Sequence record: AY167111.1
DNA length: 409 nt
Origin: a phage
Strand: one strand, 5' to 3'
Shown: in pieces, positions 2-409 of the stretch
How positions within the stretch are numbered: position 1 is the stretch's first letter
Layout of the letters: each line of letters starts with the position of its first letter
The notes under the pieces: generated by a model
Told to the model about the DNA's origin: nothing
The model's database searches: none
The model's input: the letters and a program-made list of their open reading frames with translations, nothing else
Translations under genes and position numbers: made by a program

Positions 2-409
2 GGGGCATCTGAGGCCGGTGTATGTATCCAGAATGATATAGGTGGACGTCTGCGAATTAATAATGGCGGAGCTATTCCCGGTGGTGGCGGTGGCGGCGGT
101 GGTTATTCACGAGCCAACAACTGGGCGGGAAAATATGTTTGTGGTGGCGGTGGCGGTCGTCCATTCGGCTTAGGCGGAAATAATGGTGCTCGATGGCCTG
201 GTGGTAATGCTAGTTTGACGTCTCCGGGTGCTGGCGGTAATACTGGTACAAGGTATTATGCAGGTGGAGGTGGTGAAGTTGGTCAGCCAGGACAATATGC
301 TAATCCAGGTGCTGGTTATTCAACACCTCCGACAAGTCCTGGTGCTGCTGTAGCAGGATCAGCTCCAACATGGCAGAATGTTGGAGCAATATATGGTCCA
401 AGAGTATAA
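2..409 (+). CDS. 5'-truncated CDS, C-terminal part of a glycine-rich protein; most likely a phage distal tail-fibre adhesin / receptor-binding domain (T2-type gp38-like). Stop TAA at 407-409.
   Basis: Frame 2 is open from nt 2 to 406 with no stop; the other two + frames hit stops within the first 45 nt (TGA 10-12, TAG 43-45). Translation: [135 protein letters not shown]. The supplied 64-aa ORF (215-409) is the tail of this frame, reported from an internal TTG. Product assignment comes from the polyglycine-motif / variable-segment architecture and phage-like codons, not from a database hit. Confidence 0.6.
81..96. repeat. Copy 1 of a perfect 16-bp direct repeat (gtggtggcggtggcgg) inside the Gly8 tract
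   Basis: Identical 16-mer at 81-96 and 141-156, checked base by base; flanking bases differ (80 g vs 140 t; 97 c vs 157 t). Spacing is 60 nt, i.e. 20 codons, in frame. Confidence 0.85.
141..156. repeat. Copy 2 of the perfect 16-bp direct repeat (gtggtggcggtggcgg) inside the Gly5 tract
   Basis: Same 16-mer as 81-96; encodes (C)GGGGG. Both copies use only GGT/GGC glycine codons. Confidence 0.85.

Follow-up and report, generated by a model that had tools for sequence, protein, structure and literature searches.

The subject of this analysis is a pair of perfect 16-nt direct repeats in glycine-coding DNA, found in a 409-nt stretch of phage sequence (record AY167111.1; the whole stretch is referred to below as the window). 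A single long reading frame runs from nt 2 to a TAA at the very end of the window, and by sequence similarity the window makes up the 3'-terminal 409 nt of gene 38, encoding the receptor-recognising adhesin gp38, of an AR1-like Tequatrovirus. It is 99.0% identical to gene 38 of Escherichia phage AR1 across all 409 nt, and 93-98% identical to the corresponding DNA of PP01, EC121, HY01, pSs-1 and others. The translation matches the Pfam family GP38 (PF05268) with 118.1 bits against a cut-off of 25 (E = 6e-34; profile positions 86-218 of 218), and it also matches solved structures, namely PDB 9v85_A, a GFP-gp38 fusion (E = 1.5e-73), and PDB 6f45_D, the gp38 of S16 (E = 1e-14; query residues 2-132). 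The initial annotation, which had taken the product for a T-even gp38 adhesin, was right in this respect. The AR1 locus has the order 37-38-t-asiA, so that gene 38 has the distal tail-fibre gene 37 on one side and the holin gene t on the other. The other five open reading frames of at least 20 amino acids, counted on both strands, overlap the gp38 frame and were taken as spurious.

Where in gp38 do the repeats lie? Proteins of this family consist of five glycine-rich motifs (GRMs) separating four hypervariable segments (HVSs) (Trojet 2011, PMC3157838). In the gp38 of S16 the GRMs are polyglycine-II helices that form a three-layer sandwich from which the HVS loops project (PMC6851490). In alignments with 18, 53 and 127 homologues, arm 1 of the repeat falls in GRM2, arm 2 falls in GRM3, and the segment between them is HVS2, so the arms do lie in conserved Gly motifs, as had been supposed. 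The same alignments show invariant Gly8, Gly5-RPFG, PGxG and GGxGG blocks in conserved order, separated by variable segments. In the S16 sandwich the long helix 3, 151-GGGGGGGG-158 (PMC6851490), is the Gly8 run, and GRM2 of the window corresponds to it on the evidence of sequence; the Gly runs are conserved because the protein structure, a polyglycine-II sandwich, needs them. Conservation across adhesin types extends to the DNA over a stretch of about 85 nt (20-103), made up of GRM2 and the block before it. When the window is aligned by BLAST with other gp38 types, the matches extend from nt 23-38 to nt 99-107, and for the fPS-2, Bp7, LF82-8 and CCU7 types alignments start exactly at nt 143. 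The features are collected in Table 1.

Table 1. Features of gene 38 in the 409-nt window (positions are those of the window)
Feature	Position (nt)	Strand	Description and basis
Gene 38, C-terminal 135 codons	2..406, stop 407-409	+	beta-helix end and polyglycine-sandwich specificity domain; translation, Pfam, AR1 identity, PDB matches
Conserved block	20..79	+	20 residues, directly 5' of GRM2; BLAST alignments, inter-type junctions
GRM2	80..103	+	eight Gly codons, GGT GGT GGC GGT GGC GGC GGT GGT; translation, alignments
Repeat arm 1	81..96	+	GTGGTGGCGGTGGCGG, inside the Gly8 run of GRM2
HVS2	104..142	+	13 codons, hypervariable receptor-contact loop; alignments, deletion and duplication alleles in relatives
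Repeat arm 2	141..156	+	GTGGTGGCGGTGGCGG; last 2 nt of the Cys47 codon, Gly codons 1-4 and 2 nt of codon 5, GRM3
GRM3	143..169	+	Gly5 (143-157), then invariant RPFG; invariant columns G172-G180 of alignment
GRM4	224..238	+	PGAGG; alignments
GRM5	263..292	+	10 residues; alignments
Conserved C-terminal strand	344..406	+	21 residues; BLAST blocks at 346-409; assorts independently of the HVS set

The 16-mer is present exactly twice in the window, with a start-to-start distance of 60 nt, and the identity ends at exactly 16 nt, for the outer bases differ on both sides (g at 80 and t at 140; c at 97 and t at 157). Both arms open at codon position 2 and thus share the same codon phase, so that a crossover between them would keep the frame; the two perfect in-frame arms of the initial annotation are thus confirmed. 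Runs of Gly codons are the only long repeats in the window. Not one of 200 dinucleotide-preserving shuffles had two matches, even with 2 mismatches allowed. A fairer null holds the protein fixed and resamples the synonymous codons. When codons were redrawn according to family codon usage, the longest exact direct repeat reached at least 16 nt in 2.3% of draws, and when the window's own synonymous codons were permuted it did so in 3.5%. Similarly, GRM2 of one phage paired with GRM3 of another gave a match of at least 16 nt in 3.5% of 1892 pairs. Given the protein and its codon usage, the repeat is therefore only mildly unexpected (p about 0.02-0.035), and most of it results from two poly-Gly runs being written almost only in GGT and GGC.

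Do related phages carry the rearrangements that such arms would allow? The AR1 gp38 was searched against 5.8 billion proteins, which gave 163 homologues, of which 120 were listed, and the members of ten large clusters were added. Among the homologues listed, four cluster representatives (P0006, P0041, P0070 and P0082) lack exactly HVS2 and have GRM2 fused to GRM3, and the e11/2-type cluster contains two further HVS2-deleted proteins (P0136 and P0139). The allele that encodes P0136, L072, was found on 5 contigs of up to 168 kb and is of the same HVS type as the window (e11/2/AR1 type). Compared with e11/2 it misses exactly 60 nt, in the same register as the arms of the window, and its product reads AIA-Gly6-RPFG, the very sequence that crossing-over between the arms of the window would leave. 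Other HVS2 deletions, in L041, L042, L043 and L044/L045, likewise have DNA junctions inside Gly codons. In a search for related loci, the window protein alone retrieved 1 IMG/VR locus, and a 12-sequence alignment retrieved 21 viral and 12 metagenome loci; as this is not enough to study haplotypes at the population level, most of the DNA compared was taken from annotated genome regions. Collapse of the repeat by an assembler is an unlikely source of the deletions: the longest GRM2/GRM3 identity in any sequence compared is 18 nt, less than the k = 31 of Logan and the k = 119 of the MEGAHIT contig L044, and the independent Logan contig L045 has the same allele as L044.

Only L042 and L044/L045 are intact among the deletion alleles. 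In L041 the deletion is accompanied by an in-frame stop at codon 47 and in L043 by an N-terminal frameshift, while in L072 the frame is shifted by a 2-nt (TC) insertion; P0139 is truncated. When the L042 junction was used as a query against GenBank phage isolates, no deletion carrier appeared among the 25 matches listed, all of which aligned in two pieces and spanned at least 60 nt more; similarly, none of the 40 AR1-type matches listed is shortened by 60 nt. Trojet et al. found HVS or GRM deletions in 0 of 220 T6 recombinants (PMC3157838). Because of the extra stops and frameshifts, the absence from the isolate genomes listed and the T6 result, the deletion alleles look like dead adhesin genes, the products of which would probably be non-functional.

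The contigs with deletion alleles have other peculiarities. The three independent, doubly broken gene 38 alleles (L041:2860-3585, L043:2920-3651 and L072:980-1698) nonetheless lie on long phage contigs (26-168 kb), and such phages were sequenced repeatedly. On the contig with the intact, HVS2-deleted gp38 of L042, gene 37 (L042:1533-2966) encodes only 477 aa, compared with roughly 1000-1100 in relatives, reflecting either a real internal deletion or assembly collapse of the internal repeats of gp37.

The reciprocal product, a perfect tandem duplication of the Gly run together with HVS2, is present in two Yersinia phages. In vB_YepM_ZN18 (MN716856; L001/L024) the junction has 15 nt of GRM2/GRM3 identity and in PYps47T (MT515755; L066) it has 14 nt. 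The two units differ in length, 51 nt in ZN18 and 54 nt in PYps47T, and in synonymous codons (TTA/TTG, GGG/GGA), so the duplications are independent; the copies are identical within each phage, so they are also recent. All other T6-type records among the matches listed span 51 nt less. Both ZN18 and PYps47T are isolated, viable phages of the host Yersinia pseudotuberculosis. PYps47T has been described only as having a '15-aa insertion' (PMC8762354), and a literature search on ZN18 found nothing. Thus, the deletions and duplications between the repeats that the initial annotation had envisaged both occur among homologues. In L072, ZN18 and PYps47T alike, the end-points of the variant lie in both arms and its length equals the phage's own repeat spacing, as expected of a hotspot.

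Length changes on a smaller scale occur within GRM2 itself. The run varies from Gly7 (sb1, sb2 and P0137) to Gly12 (AV121, with an extra GGC GGC GGT), and in PYps32T it reads Gly10-Val-Gly (the sources are L062/L064 for sb1 and sb2, L014 for AV121 and L067 for PYps32T). Such changes among close relatives are consistent with slippage in a period-3 GGY run. Across about 250 proteins, length change on the scale of a module (about 17-20 residues) occurs only in the GRM2-HVS2-GRM3 interval, measured from the conserved block to RPFG, and differences of no more than a few residues are seen in the HVS1 interval and between RPFG and the C-terminus. Within HVS2, we note that the gp38 of phage M1 (P0036) has YWNASITRYRYRYVV where its relatives have YWNAGIIRYVV, a small RY tandem expansion and hence a repeat-driven change on a finer scale. 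Further downstream, Bp7 (L017) and P0040 have a C-terminus that is frameshifted from within the GRM5 region, with unrelated sequence replacing the conserved end; either a genuine mutation or an error made in sequencing G-rich DNA could account for this.

Is the 16-mer itself maintained? Arms that share GTGGTGGCGGTGGCGG exist only in the window and AR1, and a conserved recombination site at this position is thereby contradicted. In PP01 the longest exact match between GRM2 and GRM3 is also 16 nt, of a different 16-mer, GTGGCGGCGGTGGCGG. The match is 15 nt in PE37, 12 nt in JY01 and bov10K1, and 11 nt in BECP11, EC121, pSs-1, HY01, LF82-4, e11/2, Sf23, sb1 and sb2. The third positions of the Gly codons vary freely even between phages with identical HVS2 DNA, and this drift among close relatives has left the exact 16-mer unconserved. 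It is Gly that is maintained, not any particular site in the DNA.

The pattern of likeness between GRM2 and GRM3 is nevertheless what gene-conversion tracts between mispaired runs would give, and we regard it as a hint and a lead. The two runs may evolve in concert, mispairing repeatedly while short conversion tracts copy third-position variants from one to the other and so raise the likeness within a genome. GRM2/GRM3 pairs from the same genome match over at least 15 nt in 10 cases (p = 0.0036, within-clade permutation), and for the mean match p = 0.027. From the majority haplotype of the AR1 clade, which has an 11-nt match, 2 of 13 possible synonymous transitions lead to 16 nt, and these two are the ones observed: GRM2 codon 2 C to T in AR1 and the window, and GRM3 codon 1 T to C in PP01. 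The changes hit the same aligned site in opposite directions. Similarly, PE37 has altered six third positions and still has its 15-nt match. Several considerations make us hold this reading as tentative, possible but short of probable. The comparison comprises only 35 distinct haplotype pairs, which are phylogenetically non-independent, and the argument from single-step transitions is post hoc. Moreover, the IAYR-type clade has no excess (own mean 9.8 against 10.5 for cross pairs), and other derived haplotypes (HY01, LF82-4, sb1 and sb2) do not raise the match. Concerted evolution of this kind would be compatible with the explanation that we favour below.

How are the variable loops exchanged between adhesin types? 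When 127 adhesins were split into segments and their pairwise identities compared, HVS1, HVS2, HVS3 (in two parts) and HVS4 intercorrelated at 0.73-0.90, whereas their correlation with the N-terminal attachment region and the C-terminal strand was only 0.26-0.41. This linkage implies that the loops are mostly inherited as one set and that the main mosaic boundaries flank the whole specificity domain. Inheritance as one cassette agrees with the RB5 x RB32 crosses, which exchanged DNA in the regions flanking the entire specificity domain, and with the remark of Trojet et al. on 'sets of HVSs' (PMC3157838). One internal boundary stands out. An HVS1 identity of at least 90% goes with an HVS2 identity of at most 50% in 277 pairs, and the reverse occurs in 0 pairs, an asymmetry that points to a boundary between HVS1 and HVS2; discordant pairs number 0-4 for HVS2 against HVS3 and 0 for HVS3 against HVS3b. 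A swap of HVS2 alone was seen in none of about 180 adhesins, and individual HVS modules did not assort independently of their neighbours, as a model of shuffling at the GRMs would have them do. The exchange of a 20-codon module by itself, as the initial annotation had proposed, is therefore not supported: HVS1-4 move mostly as one cassette.

A triplet scan of 52 genes gave 370 intervals, from which junction densities were calculated; these are descriptive, since unique intervals were counted and not independent events. Per nt, the density is 0.81 in the N-terminal half, 0.63 in GRM1, 0.62 in the C-terminal strand, 0.47 in GRM2 and 0.21 in the conserved block before GRM2, and it is 0.08 in HVS2, 0.06 in GRM4, 0.04 in GRM3 and 0.02 in GRM5. 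Natural chimeras illustrate the GRM2 junctions, two of them in the window's own clade. YwIITB1 (L065) is identical to a T6-type gene until window nt ~53-79 and to the AR1 type from the codon before GRM2, so that a T6-type segment, from the N-terminal domain through HVS1, sits in an otherwise AR1-type gene. Likewise, LF82-4 resembles e11/2 up to and including the final Gly codon of GRM2 and resembles AR1 from HVS2 onwards, with its junction at nt 103-109. The RB5 and NBG2 types join at nt 97-106, and a few junctions lie just 3' of GRM4 in T6/FL20-type chimeras. Natural recombinants thus bear out exchange in or beside GRM DNA for just two of the motifs: GRM1 and the block that GRM2 closes behave as boundaries, and GRM3-5 do not. 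Recombination through Gly-motif DNA, which the initial annotation invoked and which has been proposed in the literature (PMC3157838, PMC12032242), accordingly finds support in the mosaic breakpoints at the edges of GRM2 and little at GRM3, where junctions are very few.

Other chimeras and other settings of the family came to light in these comparisons. The gp38 of bov10K1 (L008) is a natural chimera of a Mosigvirus-like N-terminus of ~50 residues and an e11/2-type specificity domain. The 303-aa chimera P0085 (L071:2501-3412), another case with a junction at GRM2, has the gp38 N-terminus through a Gly6 GRM2 and then a foreign tail-fibre C-terminus with a Peptidase_S74 chaperone domain. This C-terminus does not come from the upstream gene 37, and the chimera was found in an NCBI E. 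coli assembly and a Logan contig. Adhesins of the gp38 family (P0108, P0110, P0116, P0119 and their clusters) are also encoded on contigs of ~220-226 kb labelled Salmonella or Enterobacter, from many samples, and one is encoded on an 850-kb Enterobacter kobei contig; the family thus occurs in large non-Tequatrovirus elements or prophages as well. A programmed diversity element, such as an invertase shufflon or a diversity-generating retroelement, was rejected, because no recombinase, reverse transcriptase or template repeat lies beside gene 38 at AR1 and 17 other loci, where the neighbours are gene 37, holin t and asiA only.

We propose, with a probability of roughly 0.75, that the two arms are the Gly-codon runs of GRM2 and GRM3, kept for structure on either side of HVS2, and that they are an incidental but real substrate for mispairing that yields HVS2 deletion and duplication. 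T-even phages replicate in a recombination-driven manner, and T4 is a classic case of deletion between short direct repeats. With Gly coded almost only by GGT and GGC, GRM2 and GRM3 share 11-16 nt in most phages, the 16 nt of the window allele being happenstance. During recombinogenic T-even replication, this short in-phase homology would permit misaligned pairing, by replication slippage or by unequal homologous recombination. One product would be the HVS2 deletion, usually a dead adhesin and normally lost; another would be the tandem HVS2 duplication, which can survive, as in the two Yersinia phages; a third would be the gain or loss of Gly codons within a run. Between divergent adhesin types, exchange would take place at the edges of GRM2, at the end of the conserved 20-103 block, and rarely at GRM3, with HVS1-4 normally passed on together. 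Of these steps, the molecular mechanism (slippage or recombination) and the loss of function by the deletions are what we infer.

Some of the evidence weighs against this proposal. All of the rearrangements come from relatives, and none was seen in the window's own genome. At the L072 junction the nearest intact relative, e11/2, has only ~4 nt of exact identity, so that long perfect homology is not required, which weakens any special role of the 16-mer; a perfect 16-mer is helpful at most. The deletions could also represent the decay of already dead genes and not primary events, given that L041, L043 and L072 are disrupted and P0139 is truncated. The deletion alleles are known from third-party assemblies and not from inspected reads, and the sample amounts to 5-6 deletion alleles and 2 duplication alleles among ~300 sequences. 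Finally, the power of the triplet scan depends on informative sites, which invariant Gly runs lack, so that its low counts there, drawn from intervals that are not independent events, are to be read accordingly.

Could the Gly-codon DNA instead be a selected cassette boundary, maintained because it lets phages swap the 20-codon HVS2 and other HVS modules and so change their host range? The GRMs have been proposed as recombination hotspots (PMC3157838, PMC12032242), the inter-type BLAST homology stops and starts at the edges of the Gly runs, the natural chimeras join at the edges of GRM2, and GRM2/GRM3 identity within a genome is somewhat above that of shuffled pairings. We nonetheless consider such selection unlikely, since HVS2 was never swapped alone, the identities of HVS1-4 are tightly correlated, junction density is low at GRM3, GRM4 and GRM5, the RB5 x RB32 crosses recombined in the regions flanking the entire specificity domain, and the unconserved Gly third positions leave no specific DNA site maintained. 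Protein structure fully accounts for the conservation of the Gly runs. At the other extreme, the repeat might be a pure by-product of coding, two poly-Gly runs under a GGT/GGC bias with no genetic consequence. Synonymous resampling and the cross-genome pairings produce such a match at the rates given above, and the 16-mer is missing from most close relatives. The natural variants largely refute this reading, which we judge the least likely of all: whole-module deletions and duplications are confined, within the gene, to exactly the GRM2-GRM3 interval, one of them, the loss of 60 nt in L072, agrees with the window in register and adhesin type, the two independent duplications have Gly-run identity at their junctions, and the lengths of the Gly runs are polymorphic.

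How does the locus compare with known systems? The gp38 adhesins of T2, T6, Ox2 and S16 type (PF05268) are the same family, with the same order of GRMs and HVSs and the same genomic place (37-38-t in AR1), and nothing essential differs, the window allele being 4 aa away from AR1 and its 16-nt identity allele-specific. The polyglycine-II sandwich of gp38 goes back to Dunne 2018 (as presented in PMC6851490), and conserved-motif recombination in the T-even distal tail-fibre locus to Tetart, Desplats and Krisch 1998 (as cited in PMC3157838 and PMC12032242). The likeness to the latter lies in the use of conserved motif DNA as homology for the exchange of specificity, with chimera junctions here at the edges of GRM2. 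The difference is that junctions here fall in the N-terminal domain, GRM1, the block with GRM2 and the C-terminus, not at every GRM, and that HVS2 alone is never exchanged. In 1996, Tetart et al. reportedly found that the host range of T4 gp37 was extended by duplication of a small adhesin domain between His-box motifs. There too a small receptor-binding module bounded by short repeats is tandemly duplicated in a viable phage, but the protein is unrelated (the gp37 tip), and the HVS2 duplications of ZN18 and PYps47T are not tied to a change of host range. Similarly, T4 rII deletion studies (Singer and Westlye; Pribnow) are said to have identified short direct repeats tens of bases apart as the end-points of spontaneous deletions and duplications; those studies were codon-phase-agnostic, whereas the gp38 repeats are in phase and bound a functional module. 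Finally, the period-3 GGY runs of gp38 vary from Gly7 to Gly12 in a surface-recognition gene, much as the simple-sequence repeats of bacterial contingency loci do; unlike those, they change in frame, with no on/off frameshift switching and no evidence of selection for mutability.

The window allele has some peculiarities of its own. Only four bases distinguish it from AR1, at nt 13, 15, 77 and 111, and all four changes are non-synonymous (D to E, G to A, A to P and Q to R). In a base-by-base comparison these four bases are absent in BECP11, EC121 and PP01, and they are limited to the first 115 nt; the change at nt 77 affects the codon just before arm 1 and that at nt 111 lies in HVS2. Mutations of host range, a variant that arose in the laboratory and sequencing errors of the source record are all conceivable explanations. 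Also, the conserved C-terminal coding region contains a perfect 10-nt inverted repeat at 362-371 and 378-387, GCTCCAACAT ... ATGTTGGAGC, with a 6-nt loop. Two differences in BECP11, at nt 376 and 379, break one pair, and the inverted repeat is probably not conserved as a structure.

The gene family, the layout of GRMs and HVSs and the support of recombination by GRM DNA were already known, and the accepted picture of gp38 is unchanged. What is added are natural examples that we did not find described as such, namely the exact 60-nt HVS2 deletion in the AR1 adhesin type, the other HVS2 deletions and the two independent duplications in Yersinia phages, together with the map of junctions. The host range of most T-even phages depends mainly on gp38, an engineering target for therapeutic and diagnostic phages. 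Its exchange points, namely the N-terminus, GRM1, the block that GRM2 closes and the C-terminus, together with the linkage of its loops, suggest at which sites a chimera would probably be tolerated. Because of the Gly runs, HVS2 is liable to spontaneous deletion, probably with lethal effect, and to duplication, which leaves phages viable; this bears on the genetic stability of production stocks. Rearrangement of HVS2 is also a simple way, open to test, of obtaining host-range variants. Recognition of Yersinia by T6/PST adhesins is controlled by two segments, of which HVS2 is one. It is conceivable, if doubtful, that frequent mispairing of GRM2 and GRM3 drives gene conversion and makes HVS2 copy number (0, 1 or 2) a fast, reversible variable, the duplicated state being adaptive on hosts other than E. 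coli, as its occurrence in two phages of Y. pseudotuberculosis would suggest. Only this reading, in which copy number and gene conversion are joined, could become interesting; if it were true, the Gly runs of gp38 would be more than a scaffold and would serve as a built-in copy-number switch.

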